Below are positions 1-29,332 of a stretch of 29,332 nt of DNA, in pieces. The stretch is from contig CAIXRF010000077.1 of assembly GCA_903921825.1 (NCBI GenBank), positions 1-29,332 of the forward strand, read 5' to 3'. The translations under genes were made by a program, and so were the position numbers. Source of the DNA: an uncultured Candidatus Micrarchaeota archaeon (GTDB taxonomy: Archaea; Micrarchaeota; Micrarchaeia; Burarchaeales; Fermentimicrarchaeaceae). How positions within the stretch are numbered: the stretch's first letter is position 1; each line of letters begins with the position of its first letter. A model generated the notes under the pieces. That model worked only from the letters and a program-made list of their open reading frames with translations. It did no database searches and was not told the origin of the DNA.

Positions 1-485
1 ACTGCCTGCCCGATTCGTCCTGCATAGGCGGCGTATGCCGTGGCCAGGACTCAGACGGCGACGGAATTCCAGACGCACAGGACAACTGTCCCTCCGTATA
101 CAACCCCAGCCAGGCGGATAGCGATGGGGATCGCGTTGGTGACGCATGCGACAACTGCGTATATACACCCAATCAGAACCAGGCGGACAGCGATGGCGAC
201 GGAGTCGGCAATGTATGCGACAACTGCCCCGGCACATATAACCCAAGCCAGGCGGACAGCGATGGGGACAGAGTTGGCGACGCCTGCGACAACTGCATTT
301 ATACTCCCAACGCAGACCAGGCAGACGCCGATAGGGATGGCATGGGAGATGCGTGCGACACGTGCACACAGAACCAACAGTGCACCTATCCGCCTGAGAC
401 CTGCGACGCCTGCGATGTTGACTGCGAAGGGCAGACGGCTGACTGCGGGCATGGAACCTGCCAACACGGAAGATGCGCGCCCTGA
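1..485 (+). CDS. C-terminal fragment (5' truncated by the window edge) of an adhesin-like protein with thrombospondin type-3 (TSP3) Ca-binding repeats. Paralog of the downstream gene.
   Basis: Frame 3 is open from nt 3 to the TGA at 483-485. It translates to ...[37 protein letters not shown]..., repeated DxDxDGxxDxxDNC motifs. Nt 1-117 are identical to 1535-1651 inside the next gene. The tracked ORF 40..522 is in the wrong frame. Confidence 0.6.
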
Positions 486-529: not shown

Positions 530-558
530 GCGTGCAAATTGGTAGCGGAGTGATTACG

Positions 559-2307
559 ATGACGCCACATGCTAATCTGAAGGGCCAATCCGCGATGCAA
601 GTTGCCCCTGGCGGGCAACAGCCTCAAGTCGCCTGCGGCGACAACTGCGCAACTCGCGTTGCGCATCGCGCCTGCCGCGGGCAGAGCGCGATGGAATTTC
701 TCATGACTTATGGCTGGGCCATTCTCGTCCTCATCATCGTTGTTGCAGTCCTATTTTACATCGGCGTGTTGAACCCGAAGAACACACAGACGAACACCCT
801 TCTCTTCGCACCCGGCTTAAGCGCATTTACATTCCGCCTGGGCAATGTAAGTGGCGCACTTGAACTGGACTTGGGCCAGGCGCAGGGCAAGTCCATAGTC
901 ATCACCGGAATCTCATGCTCCCAGGAGGCCGCTGCGCCAATACGCGACCTCAGCAGCCCGATACTCATCTCCACAGGCGAGCACAGGTGGGTTAGTGGGC
1001 CGAATTCCAACAACGAGGTCCTCTGCAGGGGAGAGGCTGACCAGCCGCTTCCGCCTGAGAATACACAGCTCGGCGAAAGATACAAGGGAAGGGTGTGCCT
1101 CAGGTACCAGGAATCGGACACTGGATTGAACCGGACTGTTTGCGGTGACTTGAACACAAAGTTTGAGACGAGCGGAACCGGTGGAGGCGGAGGAACGCCC
1201 ACAGCAACGCCGGGAGGCACTGCCACTCCAACGCCCACTGAGACGCCTACAGCCACACCAGAGCCAACCGCGACGCCCACATCTACGCCTTCCTGCTCCA
1301 ACGGAATCCAAGATGGCGATGAAACGGACGTAGACTGCGGAGGCAGCTGCCCCCCATGCGCAAATGGCAAGAACTGCGTCCAGGGTAGCGACTGCACGTC
1401 GCAAATCTGCTCTGGAGGCAGATGCCAAGTCCCATCCTGCTCTGATGGAGTCCAAAATGGCGAAGAAACTGATGTAGACTGCGGAGACGGCTGCTCCCCA
1501 TGTGCAAACGGCCAGAACTGCATCGGTGATAGCGACTGCCTGCCCGATTCGTCCTGCATAGGCGGCGTATGCCGTGGCCAGGACTCAGACGGCGACGGAA
1601 TTCCAGACGCACAGGACAACTGTCCCTCCGTATACAACCCCAGCCAGGCGGATTCGGATGGCGATGGAGTCGGCGACGCCTGCGACAACTGCCCATCTGT
1701 TTCCAACCACGACCAGGCAGATGGCGATCATGATGGCATGGGAGATGCGTGCGACACCTGCACGCGGAATGGCGTGTGCACTTATCCACCTGAGACATGT
1801 ACTGCCTGCTCCATTGACTGTGGCGGGCAACAGGCTGACTGCGGGCAGGGAGCCTCCTGTCTAAATAGTGTATGCTGCTCACCCAGGCCCGAAACATGCA
1901 ACGGCGTAGACGACGACTGCAACGGGGTTATTGACGATGGCCTAGGCTCAACCACCTGCGGCATTGGCGCTTGCCAACAAACAGTACAAAACTGTATAGA
2001 CGGCCAGACGCAGCACTGCGTCCCTGGCTCACCCCGCCCCGAAACATGCAACGGAATAGACGACGACTGCAATGGAGTAATTGATGACGGCCTAGGCTCA
2101 ACCAGCTGCGGCGTCGGCGCTTGCAGGGTAACAGTACAAAACTGTGTAAACGGCCAAACGCAGACCTGCGTCCCTGACCCACCCCGCGCCGAAACATGCA
2201 ACGGAATAGACGACGACTGCAATGGAGTAGTTGATGATAACCCTGGGAGCTTGTGCGGCCAAGGGCAGACATGCCAGAGTGGCCGATGCGTGCCCAATCC
2301 ACCATAA
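559..2307 (+). CDS. Pilin-like (class III signal peptide) adhesin. It has a PT linker, two Cys-rich EGF-like units, four or more TSP3 Ca-binding repeats, and three MopE-like putative metal-binding Cys repeats.
   Basis: The N-terminus ...[27 protein letters not shown] has Glu at +5 and a hydrophobic helix, typical of archaeal type IV pilin-like signal peptides. Downstream are [33 protein letters not shown], then 2x [28 protein letters not shown], then [15 protein letters not shown]... repeats, then 3x PRPETCNG(I/V)[14 protein letters not shown]...C. The track start 532 is GTG. ATG 559 is preferred because of the upstream GGAG. An even later start is possible. Confidence 0.8.
1885..2300 (+). 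repeat. Three tandem copies of a ~150-bp (50-aa) unit encoding the MopE-like Cys repeat.
   Basis: The string cccgaaacatgcaacgg(a/c)(a/g)tagacgacgactgcaa(c/t)gg... recurs at ~1888, ~2038 and ~2188 with high nucleotide identity. Confidence 0.7.
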
Positions 2308-7416: not shown

Positions 7417-8736
7417 ATGAGGTCTATTATATTCGCTCTCGCCCTTGCGCTGCTCGTTTCAAGCGTTTTTGCAAAGCCGCCTGAGCTCCAGGCGCTTGCC
7501 TCCGTGACATCATTCGAGGGATGGAACTGCAATCCCACGGGCGGGCCATACACGTTCACCGCAACAATCTACATCGCCAACCCCTACAACGGCACGATGA
7601 CGGTAAATTACACCTATTACGATTACTATGCGGGAAGGGAAACGGATGGCGGCCGCGTGTGCATGATTCAGGCGAACAACGAGGACCACTGCTCGTTCAC
7701 AATCCCCGTCACGCTGGGCGGGGAGGCCGCGGGCAACGCGAGCATGTCCGTGAAGCTATTTGCGTCGATAGACGGGGTCAGCGAGCAGCCGGAGAAGCGC
7801 ATCGACTACTCGTTCACGCATGCGCCCGCATCCACGGAAACGAACTCCCTCGCGAGCATAGCCGCGACGCAGGCAAGGCTCGATGGGGAAAACGTCGCCC
7901 TCTCGTCCGCGTGCACCGCGAACGGCGTGTGCTGCGGGATGGCTGGGCCGCAGGAGAAGCTCTCCGCGGCTGGTAGCAGCCTTGCGCTCGCCAGGGAGCT
8001 TGTGAGGCAGTGCAAGTTCAGCGACGCGACCACTACAACCGCCGCAGCCTCCGCGGACATCAACGGTGCCAACTCGACTTACCATTCCACGTTCAGGCAG
8101 TGCCAGTCAGCCCTGAACAACTACGCGTTTGCATATGGCAACCTCACGCGCGCGAACGAGACGCTGCTTAAGCGCGCGGCATGCGGGATGAACGTTTCGG
8201 CCTCCCGCACGGAGCTCGCAAACTCGGAAAGGCTCCTGGCGCAGGGCGCCGACAGGATAGAGGCCGACGCCTACTCGGACGCGGTGCTTTACCTAGAGCA
8301 GTCGCTTGAGACCACGAACGTCACATTCACTCTTTCGAATGACTGCCCGCTGGCAGGCCTGGGCTCCGCCGGGAACGTTACCGGGCCATCCCAGTCGCAG
8401 ACGCCTCCTCCGCAGCAGGCACCCGGAGAAGACCCGCTGTCAAAGGTGATAGGCGCGCTCGGCTACATAGTGATAGCTGCGATAATCATAGTGGTTGGCG
8501 CGGCAATCTACGTTTCGCTGGGCAAGAGGCACCTCGAAGGGATGATTAGCCGCGGGCCGCGCAGCGGCGCGGAACACCCCGGCGCACCGCCATCGCCAGG
8601 CGCGGAGCCCTCCGAAGAGCTGCCCCCGATTGACCACACCAAGGTGGAAGAGGAGTTCCAGGAGTGGCTGAAGAAGAGCGAAGCCGCGGAAGAAGCCCCA
8701 ACTGAAAAGCACGAGAAGCGCGGCAAGAAGAAATGA
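7417..8736 (+). CDS. Surface protein with a Sec signal peptide, an NxS/T-rich ectodomain, a C-terminal TM anchor, and a Lys/Glu-rich cytoplasmic tail.
   Basis: [19 protein letters not shown] is the signal peptide. ...[29 protein letters not shown] is the TM helix. The tail ...[29 protein letters not shown] is charged. TATA ggctttatatagc is at ~7373-7385 and the RBS aggtga at 7405-7410. Confidence 0.6.
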
Positions 8737-8792
8737 GGCCCGCGGCAAATCCATTTGAGCAGCCGCGGCAAAAACATTCCAAGGTGGTCGAG

Positions 8793-10679
8793 ATGGGTCA
8801 TAAGAACGCATTAGTTGCAGCCATCCTTCTGGTCGTGCTCTTCACGGCACGCGCGCCCGCAGCATCCGCGCCTGGGACGCAGCCGGCCGCTTTCGTAATC
8901 CCGAATTTCGTGGAAAACGGTTCCGCCTGGCATCGTTTCACCGTGAATGTCTCAAATCCCGCGAACGGGACAGCCTACAACTACGTCATAATGATATGGC
9001 CCGAAGCGGCCGCTTGGGAAGACCCGGGCCAGAGCGGATGCAGCGGCGGAGTGGTCGGAGTAAACAACAATAGCATCTACTGGAGAACGAGCAACTGCCC
9101 GCCACTGGGCGGCAGCATGGTCTTCAGCTTCGGCAAGGCGCTCAACCCAGTAAGCCTGAACACCACAAAGACAGTGCAGGTCTATGTGAGCAACGACAGC
9201 GGCGCAACGCTGGTGCCAGTTTCACCAACGAGCGGCTCGCCTGGCATCTGCACCGGCCCGATGAACAACCTGCAGATATGCCAGTACCTGCCCCCTCCCC
9301 CGAAGGTCATCAGCTCCTGCCCATACACAATAAACGCGCTGGCCAACTACACATTGGACGACAACCTCACCGCGGCAAACACGACGTGCATCGGAGTTAT
9401 GAGCGGAGGCAGCGGCTCAATGATAGACTGCAAGGGCCGCACTATAAACGGCACCGGAATGGCATACGGCATCTACCTGAACGACGCGAGTGGAATCCTG
9501 CTGAAGAACTGCACAATTACGCACTTCGAACGCGGAGTCTACCTCCTCAATGCCAGAAACAACACCATCCAGGACAGCTCATTCAACCTGAACGGCATCG
9601 GCGCCTACCTCTCCTCAAGCAACAACAACTCATTCCGCCGCGACAACTTCTCGGCAAACATCAATGACGGCGTACTAGTGCAGACCTCAACTACCAACGT
9701 ATTCGCCACCAATGAAATGTGCGCCGACCCGACCTACGGCGCTTACTGCTCCACGGCGCAGACCGGCGGGAGCAACAAGTGCGACACGGCCAAAGTCTCT
9801 TGCACTGGAATAACGTGCGGGACCGCATGCCCTACGCCCGCGCCCACCCCAACCCCAACTCCAACCCCGACACCGACGCCTACGCCAACTCCAACTCCCA
9901 CGGTGACGCCTACACCCACCGCGACGCCAACTCCAACCCCAACCCCCACACCAACGCCGTCTCCAACACCTACTCCAACTCCTACGCCATCCCCAACTCC
10001 GGCGCCCGGAACAATCACGTCCTGTCCCTACACGATAAGCATGCAGGGAAGCTATGCCCTCAACTCCAACCTGCAATCATCCGGCGGAACGTGCATAGGT
10101 GTAGGGACGGGAGGCAGCGGCTCCACGATTGACTGCAAGGGCCACACAATAAACGGCAGCGGCACAGGCTACGGAATCTACCTCAATGGCGCGGGCAGCA
10201 ACACGGTCAAGAACTGTACAATAGAGCATTTCGACAAGGGCGTCTATTTCCTCAACGCCAGAAACAACACCATCCAGGACAGCAACTTCATCCTCAACAG
10301 CTACGGCGCCTACCTCTCCTCAAACAGCAATGGCAACAGGATAACGAGCTGCGTCATGAATGCCAACGCCTACAAAGGGCTGTTCGTGCAGGCGTCGCGC
10401 GCCAACAACGTGAGCGCCAGTGAGGTTTGCTACAATGGCGACCCAATCTACGACCTCTACTGCTCCGCCGCGCAGGCGGGCGATGGCGGGAACTACTGCA
10501 ACACCACGAGAGCCCGCTGCAGCGGGATAACTTGCGGCTCGCCCTGTCCAGTTGTGACTCCAGCGCCCACCCCATGCATACCTGATGGGGACCCCTGCGG
10601 CGAAATCCCGTGCTGCTCAAGCTACTGCCATGGCGGGCTGGTATGCGGCCCAATGGTAACCCCAACGCCCACACCATAG
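8793..10679 (+). CDS. Secreted modular protein A: N-terminal unknown domain, two Cys-framed PbH1 (parallel beta-helix) modules separated by a long (PT)n linker, and a small Cys-rich C-terminal knot.
   Basis: Signal peptide [26 protein letters not shown]. The module ITSCPYTI...GGSGS(M/T)IDCKG(R/H)TINGTG.GYGIYLN...[34 protein letters not shown]..... occurs twice. The second-module version differs in places. The first module ends in [10 protein letters not shown]...[41 protein letters not shown]. The track start 8733 is replaced by ATG 8793 because the upstream word aaggtggtcgag ATG is shared with the next gene. Confidence 0.8.
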
Positions 10680-10712
10680 CCGATGCTCTGCCCTTTCTTG
10701 GTGCTGAGCGTT

Positions 10713-10733
10713 GCCGCCCTGAAAGCTATTTAA
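10713..10733 (+). promoter_or_regulatory. Conserved promoter block gccgccctgaaagctatttaa (TATA ctatttaa) upstream of modular protein B.
   Basis: The 21-mer matches 14199-14219 at 20 of 21 positions (a/c differs at position 10). It sits 37-44 nt upstream of ATG 10770. Confidence 0.5.
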
Positions 10734-10769
10734 GCAACCACCTGCAAATCAAACTCCAAGGTGGTCGAG

Positions 10770-13700
10770 ATGAATCCTAGGTCCGTTGTAGCGTCTATCC
10801 TGTTTGTCGCACTGTTTGCCGCGTTCGCTGCTGCGGCGCCTCCGGTTACCCACCAGCCGTCGCCAGTATGTTCCCAATACAACGAGACCAGCACAGGCTG
10901 TACGCCATATACCGGGCCACTCCTGAGTGATTCAGACGTCCAGAAAGAAGTCGGTGCCATTAACCAGAAGATAACGGAGCGAAATCTCAACTGGGTTGCA
11001 GGGGACAACTGGGTCGTGCGGCTGCCCGAAGCGGAGAGAACGCGCCTCCTGGGCGCAAAGCTATTTTCCCCGCAGGAAATGGAAGCGGCGGGCGTAAAAC
11101 CACTGTCTTATACTCCGGGCACAACGTTGCCGGTCGCTCTTGACTGGAGGAATAACGGAGGCAACTGGACCACGTCGGTAAAGAACCAAGGTGGATGCGG
11201 CTCGTGCTGGGCCTTTTCCGCGGATGGGGTCGTAGAGTCGCGGATGAACATCGATTTGGGCATCCCGCAATTCAATTATGTCCTTTCCGAGCAGGACCTT
11301 GTTTCCTGCTCCGGTGTAGGAAGCTGCAGTGGCGGCTACGAGGACCTGGCTATTGGCTATATTAATAATACTGGAACCACCAACGAATCCTGTTTCTCGT
11401 ACCAGGCATCCGACGTGTCATGCGGACTGAAATGCGCCAATTGGCAGGACCAGAAGGTGCGTGTAACCAATTATAGCTATGTCGCTGCCGGTGCCAACGC
11501 CATAAAACAGGCACTGAACACCTATGGCCCAGTTACCGTATCCATGCCTGTTTTTTCTGACTTCTTTGACTATTCCGGAGGCATTTATACCAGAACGTCT
11601 GACTATCTTGAGGGCTTCCACGCAATAGACATCGTCGGCTACAACGACACTGGCGGATACTGGATTGTTAAAAACAGCTGGGCTACCACCTGGGGTGAAA
11701 ACGGTTATTTCAGGATGAGCTATTCAGAAGATACAAACTATTCGACTTGGACTTGTTTTACTGTGTATGCCAGCTGTTCTCAGCCAGGCTCCTTTTTCAT
11801 GGACCAGAGCGTTGCCGTCATGAGCACAAACGCGCCAAGCCTGTTCAACTTCGGGTCGGTTTCGGGCTATGTGTTTGACGACCTAGCGCAGGGGATTGCG
11901 AGCGCAATTGTCAACGTGACGAATGCAAGCGGCTCGCCAACGAACCTCACGAATGCAAGCGGTTACTACATAATCGGTGTCGTTCCCGCCGGAACCTTTA
12001 GCATCAGCGCGAGGAAAAATGCCTCTCTTGGCACCAACACAACCACCGTGACCGTGGTTACAAACACCACCACCAATGTCAACTTCACTCTGTATGCGCC
12101 AACTCCGATTCCAACGCCAACCCCCGTGGTAATCAGCAGCTGCCCCTACACAATAAGCGCCCCAGGTGCCTACGTCCTGTCGTCAGACGTCAATTCGGCA
12201 AGTGGCTCGTGCATCGCCATATCCACGGGAGGCAGCGGCTCCACGCTTGACTGCCAGAACCACACAATAAACGGCAGCGGCACAGGCTACGGAATCTACT
12301 TCAACAGCGCAAGCGGCAGCATGGTAAAAAACTGCACTGTGAAGCGCTTCGCGCGCGGAGTCTACCTCTCCAGTGCGCGCAACAACACCATCCAGGACAG
12401 CGCATTCAACTCGAACAACTACGGCGCCTACCTATCCTCAAGCAACAACAACTCATTCCGCCGCGACAACTTCTCGGCGAACACCGCTGACGGCGTCTAT
12501 GTGGCGAGCTCAACTACCAACGTATTCGCCACTAACGAAATGTGCGCCGACCCGACCTACGGCGCTTACTGCTCCACTGCTCAGACAGGCGGGAGCAATA
12601 CCTGCAACTCATCCAAAATCTCTTGCAGCGGAGTAACGTGCGGCTCACCCTGCCCAGGCACGACTCCAACGCCTACACCCACTCCAACTCCAACACCCAC
12701 GGTGACGCCCACACCTACCGTTACGCCAACCCCCACTCCAACTCCGACTCCCGGCCCACCCACGCCCACCCCAACAGCTACCCCCACGCCAACTGCGACT
12801 CCAACTCCAACACCAACTCCAACCCCGACGCCCACCCCCACTCCAACTCCAGCGCCCGGAACAATCACATCCTGCCCATACACGATAAACGCCCCAGGTG
12901 CCTACATCCTAACGTCAAACATCAATTCGGCAAGCGGCACCTGCATTGCAATATCCACAGGAGGCAGCGGCTCCACGCTTGACTGCCAGGGCCACATGAT
13001 AAACGGCAGCGGCACAGGCTACGGCGTCTTCCTCAATAGCGCGGGCAGCAACACAGTCAAGAACTGCACTGTGAAGCACTTCGACAGGGGCATCTACCTT
13101 TCCAACGCCAAAAACAACACCATCCAGGACAGCTCTTTCAACGTAAATGCCTTCGGCGCCTACATCTACACCAACAGCAACAACAACTCTTTCCGCCGCG
13201 ACAATTTCTCAGCTAACACCAACAGAGGCGTCTATGTGATTTCCTCAACTACCAACGTATTCGCCAGCAACGAGATATGCGCCAACCCCACCCAGGACGC
13301 CTACTGCTCGGTGGCGCAGACAGGCGGGAGCAACACCTGCAACGTATCCAAAATCTCTTGCAGCGGAGTAACGTGCGGCTCACCCTGCCCAGGCACGACT
13401 CCAACGCCTACACCCACACCCACTCCAACCCCGACCCCGACGCCTACGCCCACTCCAACGCCCACGCCAACAGTAACACCAACGCCCACGGTTACGCCTA
13501 CGCCTACCGTGACGCCAACTCCGACTCCAACACCGACACCCACGCCAACTCCTACTCCAACCCCAACGCCGTCTCCAACGCCAAGCGGGACGGTCATTAC
13601 AACCTGCCCATACACAATAAGCATCCCAGGCACTTACATCCTCAGCGGAAACCTCAATTCGGCGAGCGGGACGTGCATAGGAATGACATCAGGGGGCAGC

Positions 13701-14141
13701 GGCTCCACGCTTGACTGCCAAAACCACACGATAAACGGCAGCGGCACCGGCTACGGAGTTTACCTAAATAGCGCAGGCAGCAGCACAATCAGGAACTGCA
13801 CAATCGAGCACTTCGACAAGGGCATCTACCTCTCCAACGCCAAGAACAACACCATCCAGGACAGCAACCTCATCGTCAACAACTACGGCGCCTACCTAGT
13901 GGCGAGCAGCAACGGCAACAGGATAACGAGCTGTGTCATGAACGCCAACACCTACAAGGGGCTGTTCGTGCAGACGTCGAGCACCAACAACGTGACCGCC
14001 AGCCAGACTTGTTTCAATGGCGACTCGATGTACGACCTCTATTGCTCCACGGCGCAGAGCGGGAACGGAGGCAACATCTGCACCACTTCGAGGGTTTCCT
14101 GCGGCGGAGTGACATGCAGCAGATCCTGCATCCCCGCCTAG
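10770..14141 (+). CDS. Secreted modular protein B: signal peptide, possible propeptide, papain-like C1A cysteine peptidase, CarbopepD_reg-like beta-sandwich, then three PbH1 modules joined by (PT)n linkers.
   Basis: Signal peptide [24 protein letters not shown]. The peptidase motifs [22 protein letters not shown] (Cys active site), [35 protein letters not shown] (His/Asn) and LSEQDLVSC read like papain itself. A CarbopepD_reg-like stretch (GYVFDD...[34 protein letters not shown]) follows. Then come three ~180-aa modules matching those in genes A and C. The track start 10761 is GTG. ATG 10770 follows the aaggtggtcgag word. Confidence 0.85.
12110..14141 (+). repeat. Three tandem module-plus-linker units (period ~733 bp) with high nucleotide identity. 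The same module recurs in genes A and C.
   Basis: Modules start at ~12131, 12865 and 13597 (atcagcagctgcccctacacaataagc...). Related copies start at 9309, 10017 and 14335. The string ggaggcagcggctccacg(c/a)ttgactgcca recurs at ~10110, 12229, 12961, 13693 and 14437. Confidence 0.75.
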
Positions 14142-14150
14142 CCAAAGCAC

Positions 14151-14172
14151 CTTCTTTTCCTTTTCTTTCCGT
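14151..14172 (+). terminator. T-rich tract after protein B. Candidate terminator.
   Basis: The sequence cttcttttccttttctttcc follows directly after the TAG at 14139-14141. Confidence 0.3.
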
Positions 14173-14198
14173 CTTGGCAGCGGCAGCTTTCCGGCGCG

Positions 14199-14220
14199 GC
14201 CGCCCTGCAAGCTATTTAAA
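14199..14220 (+). promoter_or_regulatory. Conserved promoter block gccgccctgcaagctatttaaa (TATA ctatttaaa) upstream of modular protein C.
   Basis: It matches 10713-10733 at 20 of 21 positions (c/a differs). It sits 34-42 nt upstream of GTG 14254, with a caaggtga word in between. Confidence 0.5.
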
Positions 14221-14253
14221 CTACGTGAGGCAAAAAAGAGTCAAGGTGATTTC

Positions 14254-16062
14254 GTGAGTCCTAGACCCCTGTTTGCGCATGCATTCTTGTTCATCGCACT
14301 TCTTGCGGCTTCCGCTGCAGCACCCGGGATAGCAATCACTTCCTGCCCGCGCACGATAAACGCCCCAGGCACTTACGTCCTCACCTCGGACCTAAACTCT
14401 CCGGGCGGGACGTGCATAGGCGTGGGCGCAGGCGGCAGCGGCTCCACGATTGACTGCCAGGGGCACCTAATCAGGGGCCCCGGCGCTGCGGGCTACGGGC
14501 TCTATCTCAACGGAGCGAGCTACGTTACGGTGCGGAACTGCACATTCCGGAGCTTCGACCGCGGAATATACCTCTCCTCAGCAAGGTACAACACCATTCA
14601 GGACAGCTCTTTCAACGCGAATAATATCGGCGCATACATCTATTACAACAGCAACAACAACACGTTCCTGCGCAGCAACTTCTCGGTGAACCGCGACAAA
14701 GGAGTATACGTATTCACATCCATAGGCACCGTATTCACCACCAATGAAATGTGCGCTGACCCAACCTACGACGCCTACTGCTCATCGGCGCAGACCGGCG
14801 GGAGCAACACTTGCGACACTGCCCTGGTCTCCTGCTCTGGCGTCACGTGCACGCATGCATGCCCAACCCCAGGGCCGACCCCCACGCCGACCGCCACCCC
14901 CACTCCTGTTCCGCCGACGCCCACCCCAACTCCGACTCCCGGCCCACCGACGCCCACCCCCACAGCCACTCCAACGCCCGTTCCGACGCCACCAGCATGT
15001 GCCTCGCCTGGCGGGGTTGTGAGCACCTGCCCATGCACCATCAACGCGAAGTCAAACTACTCCCTAAACCACAGCCTGACCGCCAACGGCACCTGCCTCA
15101 CATTCAACACAGGCGCAAGCAATTCCACGCTTAACTGCAACAACTTCAGCATCACCGGTCAGAACAACGGATACGGAATCCTCATGAACGGCGCCTATTA
15201 CATGAACGTGACGAACTGCAACGTGACCAATTTCACCTACGGCTTCTACCTGAGCGGGGCCAGCAGCAACAACATCCGCGCAAGCAGGGTATACCTGAAC
15301 ATATACGGCTTCTTCCTGAGCTACGCCTCCAACAACAACATCACCAGCAACACCGTCTGCTACAACCCAGTGGACCTCTACTGCGAGGCTTCACCGGGCA
15401 ACGCAGGCAGCGACGTCTACGACCGGAACACCGGGTGCGTGAGCATCACCAAGAGCGCATCCTGCCCGCCAGCCCCAACGCCTACGCCAACTCCCACGCC
15501 TGCGCCCACCCCTACTCCAGGCCCAATCACCATAAACGCATGCCCATTCACCATAAACAGCGCAGGGACATACCGCCTTACCCATGACCTCACAGCGAAC
15601 GGGACGTGCATAGGCATAATGAGCGGAGGAAGCGGCGCAATACTGGACTGCTACGGCTACGCCCTCTTCGGGAACGGCACAGGCTACGGGATTTACATGC
15701 AGACGAACAACGTCCTTGTCACCAATTGCGAAGTCAGCGGCTTCGACCGCGGCATTTACATGAAGAGTTCCAGCAGCAACAACTTTTTAGCAAACCTGCT
15801 CGAGCGCAACAACATCGGTGCCTACCTCTACGGCAGCAACTACAACCACTTCGACAGCAACATATTCGTCTCCAACCGCGACCGGGGGATTTACGTGCTG
15901 ACCTCGAGCAACAACCAGTTTTACAACGGCGAGATATGCTACAACGGAAACAGCAACAACGATGTCTACTGCTCAACTGCCCAGACTGGCGGGCTCAACG
16001 TCTACTGCGACATCTCGCGGATTTCCTGCCCCGGCGTAACCTGCGATGTGGGCTGCCCCTAG
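14254..16062 (+). CDS. Secreted modular protein C: one canonical and two diverged PbH1 modules with (PT)n linkers.
   Basis: Signal peptide MSPRPLFAHAFLFIALLAASAAAPG. Module 1: [44 protein letters not shown]...[24 protein letters not shown]...[41 protein letters not shown]. Later modules (TCPCTINAKSNYSL..., NACPFTINSAGTYRL...) are more diverged but keep the NxS/T-rich beta-helix periodicity and the terminal ...YCSTAQTGG...SCPGVTCDVGCP. GTG start. Confidence 0.8.
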   Translation: MSPRPLFAHAFLFIALLAASAAAPGIAITSCPRTINAPGTYVLTSDLNSPGGTCIGVGAGGSGSTIDCQGHLIRGPGAAGYGLYLNGASYVTVRNCTFRSFDRGIYLSSARYNTIQDSSFNANNIGAYIYYNSNNNTFLRSNFSVNRDKGVYVFTSIGTVFTTNEMCADPTYDAYCSSAQTGGSNTCDTALVSCSGVTCTHACPTPGPTPTPTATPTPVPPTPTPTPTPGPPTPTPTATPTPVPTPPACASPGGVVSTCPCTINAKSNYSLNHSLTANGTCLTFNTGASNSTLNCNNFSITGQNNGYGILMNGAYYMNVTNCNVTNFTYGFYLSGASSNNIRASRVYLNIYGFFLSYASNNNITSNTVCYNPVDLYCEASPGNAGSDVYDRNTGCVSITKSASCPPAPTPTPTPTPAPTPTPGPITINACPFTINSAGTYRLTHDLTANGTCIGIMSGGSGAILDCYGYALFGNGTGYGIYMQTNNVLVTNCEVSGFDRGIYMKSSSSNNFLANLLERNNIGAYLYGSNYNHFDSNIFVSNRDRGIYVLTSSNNQFYNGEICYNGNSNNDVYCSTAQTGGLNVYCDISRISCPGVTCDVGCP

Positions 16063-16105
16063 GACGGCTGCGCACAGCGGCACCCGCCACCTAGTCGGCA
16101 GATGG

Positions 16106-16129
16106 TTAATATATTTAACTATTCATAGT
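16106..16129 (+). promoter_or_regulatory. TATA box (ttaatatattt) plus a 12-bp palindrome ACTATTCATAGT. Candidate MarR operator overlapping the promoter of the efflux operon.
   Basis: AT-rich TATA at 16106-16116. The inverted repeat actat-tc-atagt at 16118-16129 lies between the TATA and the RBS gaggagagg (16141-16149). Confidence 0.45.
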
Positions 16130-16151
16130 CTTAACTGAATGAGGAGAGGCG

Positions 16152-16610
16152 ATGGACGAGGCGAAACTTGAGAAGCTTGCAGACAACCTGGTGCTGCTGA
16201 TGCGGGTATTCCGCATCATGCTGGCGGGCAGCGAGGGCCATGGGCCCAAGATAATGCCGCTGGACCCGCAATACTGGGTCCTTGGCATCCTGCAGCGCGG
16301 CGACCTGCCCATGTCCGAGCTCGGGAGGCGCCTCCACAGGTCCAAGCCGAACATGACCGCAGTGGTTAATAGCCTCATTGCAGACGGCAGGGTGGCAAGG
16401 CGGCCGGACAAGAGCGACCGGCGCATCGTCCGGATATCCATAACGCCGAAAGGGCGCGCGTTCCTGAAAGGGGCGAAGATGGCGGTCAAGGCGAACATGA
16501 AGCGGAACCTCTCGCGCCTGAGCAGCGGGGACCTCGACACCCTTTACTCCTCGCTGGAAGAAGTGAACAGGGTGATTGGCAAGGCGAGCGGTGGTTTGCA
16601 TGGCACCTGA
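16152..16610 (+). CDS. MarR-family winged-helix transcriptional regulator.
   Basis: 152 aa. wHTH: LPMSELGRRLHRSKPNMTAVVNSLIADGRVARRPDKSDRRIVRISITPKGRAFL. It is the first gene of an efflux operon. Confidence 0.85.
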   Translation: MDEAKLEKLADNLVLLMRVFRIMLAGSEGHGPKIMPLDPQYWVLGILQRGDLPMSELGRRLHRSKPNMTAVVNSLIADGRVARRPDKSDRRIVRISITPKGRAFLKGAKMAVKANMKRNLSRLSSGDLDTLYSSLEEVNRVIGKASGGLHGT

Positions 16611-17289
16611 GAAGAGCGCGAAAGTGCATCACGAGGCGCCAGCGGAGAAAAAAGGCGGCCCAGCCGCAGCTCTCGCCGCCATCCGCAACCACCCGCTTCT
16701 TGCAGAGGCGGTCCTCCTTATTGCCATAGTTGCGCTGATAGGAGGATACTTCTATTGGCAGGACATGCAGGGCAAGATATACCTGGAGAAGACAGTGATA
16801 AGCGCGCCGCTCATCTCGCTCGCGCCCCAGGCGCCGGGGCAGATAACCGAGGTCTATGTGAAGGAAGGCGACAGGGTTGCGAGGGGCCAGCGGCTCGCAA
16901 AGGTCGGGGACCAGTACGTCACCGCAAAGACCTCCGGAATAATCGTTTCGGTCAACAATGCGCCAGGGCAGATGGCGACCGCGCAGACGCCGGTCGTGAC
17001 GATGATAGACCCCACGCAGCTGCGCCTCATCGGCCGCGTAGAAGAGGACAAGGGGCTGAGCGACATCCGCCCGGGCCAGCGCGTCGCATTCACCGTTGAT
17101 GCGTTCGGCGCCAAGGAATACGAAGGCGTCGTGGAGTCCATAGCCCAGAGCGCGCACCAGTCTGACGTCGTTTTCAGCATCTCGGACAAGCGGGCGGAGC
17201 AGGAATTCGACGTGAAAGTCTGGTTCGACACCTTCACCTACCCTGAGCTCAAGAACGGCATGTCTGCGAAAATGACTATCTACAAATGA
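16600..17289 (+). CDS. HlyD/EmrA-family membrane fusion (periplasmic adaptor-like) protein.
   Basis: N-terminal TM anchor LLAEAVLLIAIVALIGGYFYW, then a biotin-lipoyl-like and beta-barrel part (LAPQAPGQITEVYVKEGDRVARGQRLAKVGDQY...IDPTQLRLIGRVEEDKGLSDIRPGQRVAFTVDAFG...). ATG 16600 is preferred over the track's TTG 16576 because GGTGG sits 5 nt upstream. It overlaps the marR stop. Confidence 0.78.
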   Translation: MAPEKSAKVHHEAPAEKKGGPAAALAAIRNHPLLAEAVLLIAIVALIGGYFYWQDMQGKIYLEKTVISAPLISLAPQAPGQITEVYVKEGDRVARGQRLAKVGDQYVTAKTSGIIVSVNNAPGQMATAQTPVVTMIDPTQLRLIGRVEEDKGLSDIRPGQRVAFTVDAFGAKEYEGVVESIAQSAHQSDVVFSISDKRAEQEFDVKVWFDTFTYPELKNGMSAKMTIYK

Positions 17290-26317: not shown

Positions 26318-28156
26318 TCACATCGGGCATGGAGTGTATGACGGTATTGCGCAGCCCGTCTGCTGGTAAAACGTGTTGTTGCTGCCGATTGTCTGTGTGT
26401 TGCTGCACCAGAGGTCGTTCCACGCTATCCCCCGCATGTTGTAGCAGACATAATCATCCGTTAGATTGACCGTGTTCGTGCCGATGGTCATGTTTACTCC
26501 TGTCGCAAAGTTGATGACGCTGCAGTTCTCGATGGTCATCGGAGCTTTCACGAGTATGCCCGTGCCAAAGTTATCCGTATTGTTTATGAAGTTGCCGCTG
26601 CAGTTCAGCGTCGAGCCTTCCGCCCCAGACTCGAAGTCTATGCACGGGAACGTTCCGCCGTAGTTGTTTATCTCGTGGGTCAGGTAGTAGCTTCCGGCTG
26701 CGCTCACCACCGTTCCGCAGTATGCTATCTCGCCGCCTGGCTCCGGCGTGTGCATGGTGCACGGCGCGGCCCTCATGATTCCGCCGCAGCCCGTGTTCGT
26801 GTCAAACGTGTCATCGCCGGAGTTGCCGCTTCCGCCACCGCAGCTGAAGTCCGTAGGGTTGGAGCAGACCGTGTTGCCCGTTATGTTGTTGCTGCTGCTG
26901 GACACGGCCAATTCAACGCCCATAGCGCTGTTCGACTCGATGGTGTTTCCGGAAACGTTGTTGCCGTTGCTGCTGTAGATCTGGAGGCCATGCCCGCAGG
27001 AGTGGGCGTTCAAGCTAAGCGTGTTCCCAGTAATTGTATTGCCATTGCTGCCGGACTCCATCGAGATGCCATTGCAGTTCGAACTGGCATCGTTGTCCGT
27101 GATGTTGTTGTTGCTTGACCCAGAGAGGTACATGCCAGCGCCCACATGGGCGTCTTCGCTGAGGACGTTGTACTCCAGCGTGTTGTGCGCAATGTTGTTG
27201 CCGTTGGACGCATACAGGTAAATGCCCACCTCAAAATACCTCACGGTGCAGTGGCTGACATTCACATTGCTCATGCCCCATGACAGTATGCCTGCGCCCC
27301 AGTTGGTGTTGCCCGTGATTACGTTGTCATTGCAGTCAAGGGTCGAGCCGGATGCGCCTGGAGTGACGTTTATGCAGCTGCAGTCAAAAGATCCGCTTGG
27401 GCAGCTGCTGCCCCCGGTCAGCGGGCCGCTGAGCGTGTAGTCGCCCTGAACGGTTAGCTCCGAGCCTGCTGGCCATGGCGTGTTCGGGTCGCAGGTGGTG
27501 ATTACCTCACTAATTGGCGTCGGAGTCGGAGTGGGCGTAGGCGTCGGCGTAGGCGTTGGCGTCGGAGTTGGAGTCGGAGTGGGCGTCGGAGTAGGCGTAG
27601 GTGTAGGCGTTGCCGTCGGAGTCACCGTGGGCGGCGGAGTTACTTGCTGCACCGCTATCTCCTCATACTTCAGCGACACATCTGCGGCGACCTGGCGCGT
27701 GAACCCCGTGTCCAGCTCCACGTATTCAACGAACATCTTCCCCTTGAACAGGTTGCCTGCCCTTCCGGTTGCAGTGCTGCCATCCTCACTGTGGCACACC
27801 TTTGAGCCGCTTTGGATGAACGCATGGTCCCCATCCACTATCATGACTGGGCTGTCCAGCGCGTCGCCAGAGCCTAGCACCGGCGAGCCCTCCGCGGTGC
27901 ACCTTATCCTCGTGACGTTTATCTGGTGGCCCGTGGACTGGCCGAAGTCAATCCCGAAATTGCCAGTGGTGTTCAGAAGAGGGCCTTTGCACAGGAAATT
28001 CGCCGGGAAGACGCACGTTGAAGCGAGGGGCGTCCTCGGGTTTATCAGGCCGACCCACAGCAGCATGCCTATCGCCACGAGCATTATCAGAATCGCCCAC
28101 CCGTAGGTGGTCAAGTATTCTATCGCCGACTGCCCGCGCAAAGTTTTTGTCGCCAT
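26318..28156 (-). CDS. Pilin-like (class III signal peptide) protein fused, through a long (PT)n linker, to a parallel beta-helix (PbH1/NosD-like) domain.
   Basis: MATKTLRGQSAIEYLTTYGWAILIMLVAIGMLLWVGLINP, then a ~140-aa pilin-like globule, then [35 protein letters not shown]. After that come GN(T/N)I(T/S)(G/D)N repeats (ITGNTLSLNAHSCGHGLQIYSSNGNNVSGNTIESNSAMGVELAVSSSSNNITGNTV...). RBS GGAGGGGTG upstream. Confidence 0.8.
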   Translation of the reverse strand: MATKTLRGQSAIEYLTTYGWAILIMLVAIGMLLWVGLINPRTPLASTCVFPANFLCKGPLLNTTGNFGIDFGQSTGHQINVTRIRCTAEGSPVLGSGDALDSPVMIVDGDHAFIQSGSKVCHSEDGSTATGRAGNLFKGKMFVEYVELDTGFTRQVAADVSLKYEEIAVQQVTPPPTVTPTATPTPTPTPTPTPTPTPTPTPTPTPTPTPTPTPISEVITTCDPNTPWPAGSELTVQGDYTLSGPLTGGSSCPSGSFDCSCINVTPGASGSTLDCNDNVITGNTNWGAGILSWGMSNVNVSHCTVRYFEVGIYLYASNGNNIAHNTLEYNVLSEDAHVGAGMYLSGSSNNNITDNDASSNCNGISMESGSNGNTITGNTLSLNAHSCGHGLQIYSSNGNNVSGNTIESNSAMGVELAVSSSSNNITGNTVCSNPTDFSCGGGSGNSGDDTFDTNTGCGGIMRAAPCTMHTPEPGGEIAYCGTVVSAAGSYYLTHEINNYGGTFPCIDFESGAEGSTLNCSGNFINNTDNFGTGILVKAPMTIENCSVINFATGVNMTIGTNTVNLTDDYVCYNMRGIAWNDLWCSNTQTIGSNNTFYQQTGCAIPSYTPCPM

Positions 28157-28880: not shown

Positions 28881-29332
28881 TTAAGGTCCGCCCCCAGCGG
28901 CTGTGCCCGCGTAGAGACCAAAACTACTCCATGCCAAGGAGTTCACGCCCTCTCCCGGGAAATTATGCCACAGCGACCATGACTCCGGGCCTGAATTCCA
29001 GAAATAGACGTTCCCTCCAGATGTGCCTGCATAAAGATTGCTAGAATACCAAGAAAGGGAGTTCACGCCCTCTCCCGGGAAATTATGCCACAGCGACCAT
29101 GACTCCGGGCCTGAATTCCAGAAATAGACGTTCCCTCCAGATGTGCCTGCATAAACATCACTGTAATACTCAACAACGGAATTTACGCTCTCGCCAGGGA
29201 AATTATGCCACAGCGAAATGGAGTCAGTTCCCGAATTGTAATAGTAGATGTTCCCCGCAGACGTGCCCACGTAAAGATTTCCCGACCCGCCCAGAAGCGC
29301 TATGGCGTTCACGCCCTCTCCCGGGAAATTAT
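28881..29332 (-). CDS. C-terminal part (N-terminus outside the window) of a protein built from ~40-aa tandem repeats, possibly beta-propeller-like.
   Basis: Repeats of YAGTSGGNVYFWNSGPESWSLWHNFPGEGVNSL. The reading frame stays open to the window edge. TAA at 28881-28883. Confidence 0.6.
   Translation of the reverse strand, partial: NFPGEGVNAIALLGGSGNLYVGTSAGNIYYYNSGTDSISLWHNFPGESVNSVVEYYSDVYAGTSGGNVYFWNSGPESWSLWHNFPGEGVNSLSWYSSNLYAGTSGGNVYFWNSGPESWSLWHNFPGEGVNSLAWSSFGLYAGTAAGGGP
28890..29332. repeat. Tandem DNA repeat of 120-bp period with ≥3.5 copies. Two adjacent copies are 100% identical over 97 bp.
   Basis: 28939-29035 equals 29059-29155 exactly. A diverged copy lies at 29179-29275 and another starts at ~29299 and runs off the window. 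Confidence 0.85.

Follow-up and report, generated by a model that had tools for sequence, protein, structure and literature searches.

Eight beta-helix modules in three adjoining archaeal genes: a likely lineage-specific expansion of secreted or surface paralogues

Eight copies of one beta-helix module are spread over three adjoining, co-oriented paralogous genes (A, B and C) within a window of 29,332 nucleotides, the whole stretch of archaeal DNA analyzed here. The analysis shows the domain content of the three proteins, the divergence of their modules and a signal of recombination among them. We consider it likely that the cluster grew as a lineage-specific expansion of secreted or surface beta-helix paralogues with an adhesin-like function, through duplication of module-plus-linker and 5' units, divergence of the copies and short-tract conversion. 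The family of modular beta-helix proteins is very large, and the cluster is an ordinary lineage-specific expansion within it, with nothing that would be unexpected for such proteins.

Architecture of the cluster and its shared 5' unit

The preliminary description of this DNA had counted two, three and three modules in genes A, B and C, and the same numbers were recovered here by alignment of the eight modules and by tblastn, with C2 recognized as a shortened, divergent copy (Table 1). A typical module is a right-handed parallel beta-helix of ∼176 amino acids framed by eight invariant cysteines, with Pro-Thr linkers of 20-68 amino acids between modules; in gene B two such linkers of ∼67 amino acids part the three modules. 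C2 lacks 24 alignment columns, a gap that probably corresponds to about one helix turn. The mechanical open reading frame of gene A begins earlier, at the ATG at 8733; we placed the start at 8793 because an AAGGTGG leader lies just upstream and because B and C have homologous starts. The closest relative found for the source archaeon, and the one on which its phylum assignment is based, was a Candidatus Micrarchaeota genome bin (DPANN) at 67% protein identity.

Table 1. Coordinates of genes, domains, modules, linkers and repeats in the cluster (window numbering)
Feature	Position	Strand	Description
Gene A	8793-10679	+	628 aa from ATG 8793; Sec-type signal peptide, unique N-terminal region, A1, A2, Cys-rich tail
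Module A1	9306-9833	+	176 aa; eight-module alignment, tblastn
Linker of gene A	9834-10010	+	Pro-Thr, 59 aa; translation; imperfect 6-nt repeats
Module A2	10011-10550	+	"Terminal-type"; closest to B3 (77% nt identity)
Putative promoter block, gene B	10713-10733	+	GAAAGC plus TATTTAA at 10721-10733; BRE/TATA-like
Gene B	10770-14141	+	1123 aa from ATG 10770; signal peptide, papain-family protease, CarboxypepD_reg-like domain, three modules
Peptidase_C1 (papain family) domain, gene B	11127-11735	+	Pfam PF00112, 175 bits
CarboxypepD_reg-like beta-sandwich domain, gene B	11856-12092	+	PF13620, 31.3 bits, just below the 32.3-bit cut-off
Module B1	12129-12656	+	Alignment, tblastn, AlphaFold2 model
72-nt exact direct repeat, copy 1	12611-12682	+	End of B1 and start of linker 1
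Linker 1 of gene B	12657-12860	+	Pro-Thr, 68 aa
Module B2	12861-13391	+	81% nt and 78% aa identity to B1
72-nt exact direct repeat, copy 2	13346-13417	+	End of B2 and start of linker 2
Linker 2 of gene B	13392-13592	+	Pro-Thr, 67 aa
Module B3	13593-14135	+	Terminal type; alignment
Putative promoter block, gene C	14199-14219	+	TATTTAA at 14213-14219
Gene C	14254-16062	+	602 aa from GTG 14254; signal peptide and three modules
Module C1	14332-14865	+	Alignment
Module C2	15016-15468	+	151 aa; 36-40% aa identity to other modules; alignment, tblastn
Module C3	15529-16059	+	42-49% aa identity to A/B/C1 modules

All three proteins belong to the Pfam NosD/Beta_helix families, with scores of 86/83 bits for A, 128/105 for B and 93/98 for C (cut-offs 23.6/25.9) and NosD matches in every module, and TIGR03804 (para_beta_helix) matched with 38-71 bits (cut-off 19.45). 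An AlphaFold2 model of B1 (mean pLDDT 85) is a beta-helix of regular short strands. The top Foldseek matches to this model were all beta-helix enzymes or tailspikes, at weak E-values of 3e-3 or above, and the nearest solved folds were GH87, phage tailspikes, AlgG/AlgE4 and NosD. A module profile matched 29,977 cluster representatives, including proteins matched in as many as 46 stretches, and archaeal pilin-type N-termini occur in several of those that we inspected. No close match to this particular module subtype was found outside the population, the sole match to B2 being a fragment of B3 itself.

Sequence features and family resemblance suggest that the proteins are secreted, glycosylated and able to bind; most likely the modules serve as rigid, probably glycosylated, carbohydrate- or surface-binding spacers in adhesin-like proteins. 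No obvious anchor to membrane or cell wall is seen in A, B or C, and the predicted location of the proteins, either secreted or at the cell surface, is compatible with both attachment and release. The PF00112 match in gene B spans profile positions 1-208 of 220, and the catalytic Gln, Cys, His and Asn motifs, including KNSW, are seen in the translation; the putative papain-type enzyme looks intact. Relatives of this protease carry between zero and four modules each, with none in the closest (L001). The gene B product would present its protease outside the cell. It is a candidate for an extracellular protease carried on a stalk of beta-helices, with a possible role in how DPANN archaea scavenge nutrients or contact their hosts.

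Upstream of the coding sequences, the 21-nt block that had been described for two of the genes is identical at 20 of 21 positions between B and C and has no further copy in the window. The AAGGTG-containing leader, likewise attributed to two genes, in fact precedes all three (AAGGTGG at 8781-8787 in A and 10758-10764 in B; AAGGTGA at 14243-14249 in C), and A and B have the 18-nt word TCCAAGGTGGTCGAGATG in common. GAAAGC-TATTTAA resembles an archaeal BRE/TATA element, in which an A/T-rich TATA follows a purine-rich BRE, and is suitably placed for one, ending 24 nt upstream of the leader in B and 23 nt in C. In the L001 orthologue (67% protein identity) both the BRE/TATA-like element and the leader are conserved, with GAAAGCGATATAA, homologous to the gene B block, at an equal distance. 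These features suggest that the B and C blocks are used as promoters. The upstream regions of all three genes align, and promoter, leader and signal peptide form one duplicated unit, in agreement with the proposal that promoters were copied along with the genes.

Divergence and exchange among the modules

The modules are homologous DNA, both within and between the three genes, as had been reported, but they are not near-identical: codon-aligned pairs share just 50-81% of their nucleotides and 36-78% of their amino acids, with B1/B2 the top pair, and the module-plus-linker units of gene B are 79% identical in DNA. The reported period of ∼733 bp in gene B stands, its module starts lying 732 nt apart. 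A 29-nt word listed as exact at three sites, with coordinates off by 1, is exact at 12228 and 12960 and carries one mismatch at 13692; its two near-copies are real (two mismatches each, at 10110 and 14431), the second having been placed 6 nt away, at 14437. No match to a word of this length is expected by chance. The longest exact words shared are 72 (12611/13346), 44, 41, 40 and 30 nt, and there are just 29 word pairs of at least 20 nt. Among the seven full-length modules dN/dS is 0.25-0.45, rising to at most 0.85 in pairs with C2; these ratios indicate that the modules diverged under moderate purifying selection, and the full-length copies show no sign of diversifying selection.

Similarity between modules is mosaic. 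For A2 and B1, synonymous divergence (pS) is 0.13 in codon columns 31-62, 0.72 in columns 1-30 and 0.73 in columns 101-140, and for A1 and B1 it is 0.21 in columns 101-140 and 0.56 in columns 1-30. High-identity tracts measure 75-308 nt at 85-96% identity; the 3' part of A1 (9558-9775) is 89% identical to 12381-12598 in B1, and 10107-10181 in A2 is 95% identical to 12225-12299 in B1. Permutation tests of the longest run gave p<2e-4 for A2/B1 and p=0.002 for both A1/B1 and B1/B2. The PHI test gave p of about 2e-4 with all sites; like the run tests, it shuffles sites and models rate variation incompletely. Mosaic pS, long runs of matching polymorphic sites and the PHI result together back the earlier suggestion of recombination among the modules as past exchange, and the mosaic pattern points to gene conversion over short tracts, both inside single genes and from one gene to another.

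An unlikely alternative is that the modules never recombined and that their patchy similarity reflects uneven purifying selection, or codon or sequence constraint, along the module. The most similar words do sit on conserved motifs such as YCSTAQTGG, and the treatment of rate variation in the permutation tests leans the same way; part of the mosaic could thus reflect uneven constraint rather than conversion, although synonymous sites argue against it. The low-divergence patches are specific to certain pairs, not common to all modules: in columns 31-62, pS is 0.13-0.21 among A2, B1 and B2 but 0.36-0.67 in pairs with A1, B3 or C1. Moreover, the nearest neighbor of A1 shifts along the module from B3 to A2 to B1, and PHI remains significant with third codon positions alone (p from 4e-4 to 4e-3). 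The 72-nt identity also extends into the linker, which is weakly constrained in sequence, and by our own estimate an exact run of this length has a chance of ∼4e-5 at 81% identity over ∼730 nt.

Under the preferred reading, a module-plus-linker unit would have been duplicated in tandem, giving rise to the 732-nt period of gene B, and entire 5' units (promoter, Shine-Dalgarno leader and signal peptide) would have been copied along with the genes. The copies would then have diverged to 50-81% DNA identity under moderate purifying selection, and short-tract conversion, among the modules of B as well as across all three genes, would have re-homogenized patches of about 75-310 nt. Such patches would account for the long identical words that first drew attention to the region, and the clearest trace of conversion would be the 72-nt perfect repeat at the module-linker junctions of B1 and B2. 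Its copies lie 735 nt apart (245 codons), in frame, which bears out the notion that recombination has the means to change module number here: unequal crossing-over at this repeat could add or remove exactly one gene B module.

Assembly integrity and the question of surface variation

The preliminary description had warned of collapse or chimerism during assembly. We find the risk of collapse to be low. Within 8793-16062 every k-mer of at least 73 nt is unique, and at k=55 only the 72-nt word is repeated. Two further ENA assemblies have contigs that are collinear with 12499-14568 and with 12810 onward, respectively; together these contigs preserve the module order and spacing from the end of B1 to gene C. 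The first, a 2,070-nt contig of ERZ1426843, covers both 72-nt repeats and the entire B2 unit, and its gene calls map exactly onto the window reading frames with a single offset. The second, a 49.5-kb contig of ERZ1426835, has the same B-to-C spacing and an identical C product (in a 591-aa version from TTG 14287). The last 151 amino acids of module B3 are also found as protein P0173 of another assembly. A search of the protein collection for the products of genes A and B found neither, whichever start was tried; the agreement between assemblies covers C and the stretch from the end of B1 to B3.

The region is fragmented in other assemblies, with breaks at about 7674, 12499, 12810 and 14568/14579, inside or beside it; no long shared word lies at the last of these. 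Such breaks, and the fact that both ends of the present contig fall at repeats (one of 119 nt, exact, the other a 120-nt tandem), speak for the reading that the module counts or the mosaic are artefacts, either of collapsed near-identical copies or of chimeras joined at shared words from different modules or strains. We regard this explanation as very improbable. Apart from the uniqueness of the region at k≥73 and the two collinear contigs, the three genes keep uninterrupted reading frames over 1.8-3.4 kb, and at the 119-nt exact repeat the assembly broke and did not collapse. For annotation and binning, the 2/3/3 counts are probably correct, and the assembly hazards are the two ends of the contig, not the region that had been flagged. 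At its start, window positions 1-119 equal 1535-1653 exactly; its other end sits in the 120-nt tandem repeat, which has 98-nt exact copies.

Contact with host cells is essential to DPANN archaea, and phase or antigenic-type variation had been proposed for this cluster. In such an active system, frequent recombination between modules would alter their number or swap them, varying the surface on short time scales. The statistically supported past exchange between modules of different genes speaks for it, as do the 72-nt in-frame repeat with its potential to drive gain or loss of one B module, the probable exposure of the proteins, and the contig breaks within the region. The hallmarks of a switching system are nevertheless lacking. 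None of A, B and C is a silent cassette: each is a complete reading frame that has its own start codon and signal peptide and is preceded by a Shine-Dalgarno-like leader, and because the B and C promoter blocks are intact and all three genes encode signal peptides, none appears to be a donor. Perfect microsatellites beyond 2 x 6 nt are absent from the linkers, the arrays found by TRF in the region are just 66-82% matches, and there is no long perfect homopolymer or microsatellite of the contingency-gene kind. The window reading frames scanned include no recombinase, integrase, invertase or reverse transcriptase.

Identity of just 50-81%, only five shared words of at least 30 nt, and dN/dS of about 0.25-0.45 in the full-length modules also count against rapid variation, as do the unchanged C product, the last 151 amino acids of B and the B1end-B2-B3 spacing in the two other ENA assemblies. 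Active variation is thus, in our judgment, very unlikely. We also rejected a diversity-generating retroelement target: the 26 reading frames scanned contain no reverse-transcriptase domain, and the repeat differences are not confined to one base type, as judged by inspection of the alignment rather than by a formal test. Also very unlikely is a variant in which short-tract conversion among three co-expressed paralogues, with modules now and then gained or lost at the 72-nt repeat, is still going on in the population and diversifies the host-contact proteins of an episymbiont. If true, the cluster would be the archaeal equivalent of antigenic or adhesin variation in bacteria, with no need for silent cassettes.

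Comparison with known systems

Among solved structures, the best sequence match (E=1.8e-7) is to NosD, the periplasmic beta-helix protein of the NosDFY complex for nitrous-oxide reductase maturation (PDB 7o0y). We rejected NosD orthology, as the proteins score 38-61 bits against the 300-bit cut-off of TIGR04247 and their modules are multi-copy and joined by linkers; no nosF, nosY or nosZ was identified among the window reading frames scanned.

Antigenic variation by gene conversion takes place at loci such as Neisseria pilE/pilS, Borrelia vlsE and Mycoplasma genitalium mgpB/MgPar. The present cluster resembles these loci in having clustered homologous segments that appear to have exchanged short patches by non-reciprocal recombination. 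In contrast to them, it has no single expression site with silent donors, its flanking identity is much lower, and no variation between assemblies is seen in gene C and the end of B. What the recombination signal matches is slow conversion on an evolutionary time scale rather than programmed switching.

Streptococcal alpha C/Rib, enterococcal Esp and staphylococcal Bap are surface proteins with near-identical tandem repeats, typically more than 95% identical in DNA. Gene B is comparable to them in encoding modules of a probable surface protein whose number could shift by unequal crossing-over, in this case at the 72-nt repeat. Its best module pair reaches 81%, well short of ∼95%, and because its repeat units are just 79% identical, slippage should be far rarer than in Rib, alpha C, Esp or Bap.

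A close parallel lies with the archaeal beta-helix "adhesin-like proteins" (TIGR03804, PF13229, PF05048; the CASH-type carbohydrate-binding beta-helix). The same repeat families score above cut-off in the cluster, the predicted fold is a beta-helix, and the proteins are likewise secreted-looking and multi-module, relatives having from 2 to more than 40 matched stretches and often a pilin-type N-terminus. What sets the cluster apart is that its modules are discrete ∼176-aa units with eight invariant cysteines and Pro-Thr linkers of 20-68 amino acids, and that a papain-type protease is fused to the modules of one protein. Within this family, the cluster would illustrate the growth of modular surface proteins in archaea with small genomes, by module-plus-linker duplication, copying of 5' units and patchy gene conversion.

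Beta-helix modules of genes A, B and C

The modules of the three genes were delimited by protein alignment on the recurring motif (V/T)I(S/T)SCPYTI...C..CP. This alignment and tblastn gave the same eight modules, in agreement with the 2/3/3 count proposed from a first reading of the sequence, and the repeat period of gene B, put there at ~733 bp, was measured at 732 nt. The same reading held the module DNA to be near-identical, which was not borne out: codon-aligned module pairs share 50-81% nucleotide and 36-78% residue identity, with B1/B2 the top pair, and for the full B units, linkers included, the figure is 79%. Module DNA is nevertheless common to several genes, as had been claimed. The exact shared words measure 72 nt (12611/13346, both in gene B), 44, 41, 40, 30 nt and shorter, with only 29 word pairs of 20 nt or more. 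The copies of the 29-mer singled out in the preliminary description are real, none being expected by chance, and are exact at 12228 and 12960, with one mismatch at 13692 and two at 10110 and 14431. The third copy is thus inexact, and the coordinates had been one base off, or six for the last copy (14437 for 14431).

Coordinates of genes, modules and high-identity tracts
Feature	Coordinates	Strand	Length	Identity	Basis
Gene A	8793-10679	+			start chosen from upstream leader
Gene B	10770-14141	+			start chosen from upstream leader
Gene C	14254-16062	+			start chosen from upstream leader
Module A1	9306-9833	+			protein alignment + tblastn
Module A2	10011-10550	+			protein alignment + tblastn
Module B1	12129-12656	+			protein alignment + tblastn
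Module B2	12861-13391	+			protein alignment + tblastn
Module B3	13593-14135	+			protein alignment + tblastn
Module C1	14332-14865	+			protein alignment + tblastn
Module C2	15016-15468	+			protein alignment + tblastn
Module C3	15529-16059	+			protein alignment + tblastn
Tract A2/B1	10107-10181 in A2		75 nt	95%	
Tract A2/B2			107 nt	92%	
Tract B1/B2, module end			113 nt	96%	
Tract A1/B1	9558-9775 in A1		218 nt	89%	
Tract A2/B3			308 nt	85%	

Modules A2 and B3 represent a distinct 'terminal' type with a common 19-residue motif. C2 is missing 24 alignment columns, which probably correspond to about one turn of the beta-helix; it is only 36-40% identical to its neighbours, and pairs that include it have the highest dN/dS (0.54-0.85). 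This copy may have arisen earlier than the others or have shifted in function.

Pfam NosD (PF05048) and Beta_helix (PF13229) scored above cut-off in every module, and the generic para_beta_helix repeat of NCBIfam was matched as well. Because the true NosD family model of NCBIfam reached just 38-61 bits against a 300-bit cut-off, NosD orthology was ruled out. An AlphaFold2 model of B1, built from the eight-module alignment, had a mean pLDDT of 85 and showed regular short strands, the C-terminal cap being modelled with lower confidence. The nearest solved folds were beta-helix enzymes and tailspikes (GH87, CBA120 TSP2, AlgG, AlgE4 and NosD), at weak E-values, while the top PDB match by sequence was NosD 7o0y (1.8e-7). 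Eight cysteines are invariant over the modules. The linkers consist of 20-68 residues of (P/T) repeats coded by imperfect CCN-ACN repeats, in which no perfect tandem repeat exceeds 2 x 6 nt. Gene B also encodes a Peptidase_C1 domain (175 bits), with papain motifs visible in the translation, and a borderline CarboxypepD_reg (31.3 bits versus a 32.3-bit cut-off). No obvious C-terminal anchor was seen in the A, B or C proteins; the C-terminus of gene A (10551-10676) forms a short Cys-rich tail between Pro-Thr stretches, without equivalent in B and C or family assignment. Across 9000-16000 the GC skew is strongly negative (-0.10 to -0.33) and the AT skew is positive over most of the cluster, except 11001-12000; we attribute this to the C-/A-rich Pro/Thr/Asn/Ser codon usage of modules and linkers and not to a replication feature.

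Gene starts and the shared 5' units

The first ATG, GTG or TTG past the preceding stop lies at 8733, 10761 and 14254 in the three co-oriented ORFs. In all three genes an AAGGTG(G/A) leader stands 4-5 nt ahead of a start codon that opens a hydrophobic, signal-peptide-like segment, and the starts were placed accordingly (table above); the position 8793 of the preliminary description is likely the start codon of gene A. An 18-nt word, TCCAAGGTGGTCGAGATG, is common to A and B, and the upstream regions of the three genes can be aligned from ~60 nt before the start codon through the signal peptide.

Within these regions, 21-nt blocks ahead of B (10713-10733) and C (14199-14219) match at 20 of 21 positions and have no other copy in the window. 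Together with the aligned upstream regions they uphold the earlier suggestion that the promoter was copied along with the genes. Since the block is 95% identical, compared with 50-71% for the B and C modules, it is under a constraint of its own. Both copies contain GAAAGC-TATTTAA and end 24 nt (B) or 23 nt (C) before the AAGGTG leader; judged from these motifs, block and short Shine-Dalgarno leader are compatible with an archaeal BRE/TATA promoter. In the gene B orthologue of another Candidatus Micrarchaeota bin (L001), GAAAGCGATATAA precedes AGGTGGTCGAAGTG at the same distance. Because the counterpart in gene A is a degraded CCATTTGAG that overlaps the 3' end of the upstream gene 7417-8736, gene A may be co-transcribed with that gene, whose stop codon forms an ATGA with the ATG at 8733. 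The 439-aa product of 7417-8736 (+) has a signal peptide as well as a membrane anchor at the C-terminus, and matches no Pfam or NCBIfam family. A scan for sigma-70 promoters and terminators returned background-level counts, the model being irrelevant to an archaeon.

Patchy divergence and assembly of the region

Among the seven full-length modules dN/dS is ~0.25-0.45, rising to 0.85 in pairs with the divergent C2, which indicates moderate purifying selection without sign of diversifying selection. Divergence is uneven along the modules. Between A1 and B1, identity is 50-60% at the 5' end and climbs to 85-96% over the 3' half, and synonymous divergence (pS) for this pair is 0.21 in codon columns 101-140 versus 0.56 in columns 1-30. 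For A2/B1 it is 0.13 in columns 31-62 versus 0.72 (1-30) and 0.73 (101-140). Other pairs are dissimilar in these low-pS columns, and the nearest neighbour changes along the module. Protein constraint by itself does not explain such a mosaic, because synonymous divergence is itself patchy. In a GENECONV-style test, which compared the longest run of matching polymorphic sites with 5,000 shuffles, A2/B1 (p<2e-4), A1/B1 (0.002) and B1/B2 (0.002) stood out. The PHI test on A1, A2, B1, B2, B3 and C1 gave p of about 2e-4 (162 informative sites), and 4e-4 to 4e-3 with third codon positions alone. The 72-nt perfect repeat runs from the module C-terminal cap into the linker, and we calculate the chance of so long an exact run at 81% identity as roughly 4e-5. 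In view of the mosaic pS, the run and PHI tests and this unlikely run, the best reading of the 'long identical words' is that they are footprints left by short-tract gene conversion, both inside B and among A, B and C.

The proposal that the modules are substrates for recombination holds in an evolutionary sense, whereas a system of phase or antigenic-type variation is not supported. For length change at the present day, the in-frame 72-nt repeat pair in gene B is the only credible substrate. The 26 ORFs scanned included no recombinase, integrase, transposase or reverse transcriptase.

Nor was mis-assembly, the other risk that had been raised, supported. Within 8793-16062 there are no repeated k-mers of 73 nt or more, and at k=55 just the 72-nt word is repeated. 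The cross-assembly check was indirect, relying on exact-protein look-ups and the gene-call spacing of other ENA contigs, 4-5 of which carry the MarR gene that lies directly downstream. A 49,509-nt contig of ERZ1426835 opens with a 443-aa partial product, followed by a 591-aa product and MarR. The 591-aa product equals gene C exactly, read from TTG 14287, and every spacing is the same as in the window; this puts the start of the contig inside linker 1 of B, at ~12810. P0173, the final 151 residues of B3, is encoded on a 2,070-nt contig of ERZ1426843, whose three gene calls (140-484, 779-1216, 1185-1643) correspond by a single offset to ORFs 12542..12982, 13277..13714 and the end of B. This contig is therefore collinear with 12499-14568, a stretch that spans both 72-nt repeats and the entire B2 unit. 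Taken together, the two contigs reproduce the B2-B3-C structure. Two further samples contribute the scaffolds L084 and L085, which at the end of C agree with the window at 100% identity over 1,117 and 639 nt.

A frameshift at the conserved 29-mer in the ERZ1426843 contig was considered and rejected, the calls being alternative-frame ORFs. Over the Pro-Thr linkers, gene callers chose the out-of-frame ORFs 12542-12982 and 13277-13714 (+) instead of the B frame, which can mislead the annotation of gene fragments of this kind. The identical stretch of L084 (1,150 nt in total) is 15948-17064; its nt 1-33 (G-rich, AGGTGGAGGGGGAGG...) match neither the window nor any module on either strand, and were taken as probably scaffold-end junk, not as a recombinant junction. 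Exact products of gene B (1123, 1126 aa) or gene A (648, 631, 628, 614, 589, 578 aa) are not on record, and the same holds for the 443- and 493-aa partial products that contigs of other assemblies would be expected to carry at their ends. Those assemblies break in or near the region at ~7674, 12499, 12810 and 14568/14579. Shared words as the cause are weakly supported at 12810, which adjoins 17-nt linker words, and unsupported at 14568/14579; since no repeat of at least 14 nt lies at the latter, low coverage and repeats are equally likely causes there.

The window's real assembly hazard is at its start. Positions 1-119 recur without a difference at 1535-1653, within the thrombospondin-type-3/MopE-repeat gene 532-2307, and the contig therefore starts at a repeat that it shares with a truncated upstream paralogue; 119 nt may, at a guess, be an assembler k-mer length. 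At the 3' contig end a 120-nt tandem repeat (28938-29216, 2.3 copies, 98 nt exact, 28938-29035 = 29058-29155) lies within a beta-propeller-like ORF, 28881-29312 (-). The 49.5-kb ERZ1426835 contig extends at least as far as gene D (26318-28156), and its length would allow it to pass the window end.

Genomic setting and relatives

The remainder of the window is typical archaeal chromosome, with genes for geranylgeranyl reductase, archaeal phosphopantothenate synthetase, an SF2 DEAD/DEAH-family helicase, an MFS transporter, MarR and ArsR regulators, a GTPase and a PHP phosphoesterase. Genes 26318-28156 (-) and 532-2307 (+) encode archaeal class III pilin-type N-termini (GQSA(I/M)E(Y/F)L.TYGWAIL) and Pro-Thr linkers, and their products are probably further surface proteins. 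The former has two distant beta-helix modules (~35% identity to B2), the latter TSP3 and MopE-type Cys-rich repeats, among them a 150-nt tandem repeat whose copies are 87% identical.

Homologue searches returned little. A search with the A N-terminus plus A1 matched nothing, one with B2 matched a single protein, itself a fragment of B3, and one with full-length B matched only distant protease-domain relatives at 30-48% identity. With the unique B N-terminus, the genome scan placed L001 closest (67% identity, no modules), and top matches in metagenome contigs were at most 54%. The L001 orthologue (745-2436) comprises the protease and a ~170-aa Pro-Thr-rich region, without beta-helix module or CarboxypepD_reg; its contig starts only 744 nt upstream. 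The number of modules fused to relatives of the B protease is 0 in L001, 1 in loci L009 and L010 and higher in L031 and L043, and module content is therefore fluid over evolutionary time.

The modules themselves belong to a populous kind. Searched against 1.84 billion cluster representatives, the eight-module profile matched 29,977 proteins at E<=1e-3 and 811 at <=1e-30, including 6,000-7,400-aa giants with 35-46 matched stretches. Six matches examined whole follow the same scheme of cysteine-closed beta-helix modules, and most of them begin with the pilin-type N-terminus QAAIEFLITNGWAILV or the region directly past it. The flagged repeats are diverged modules, the product of a lineage-specific expansion within a very common class of modular beta-helix surface proteins; in methanogen genomics, parallel beta-helix-repeat proteins are termed adhesin-like proteins (PMC7883539).
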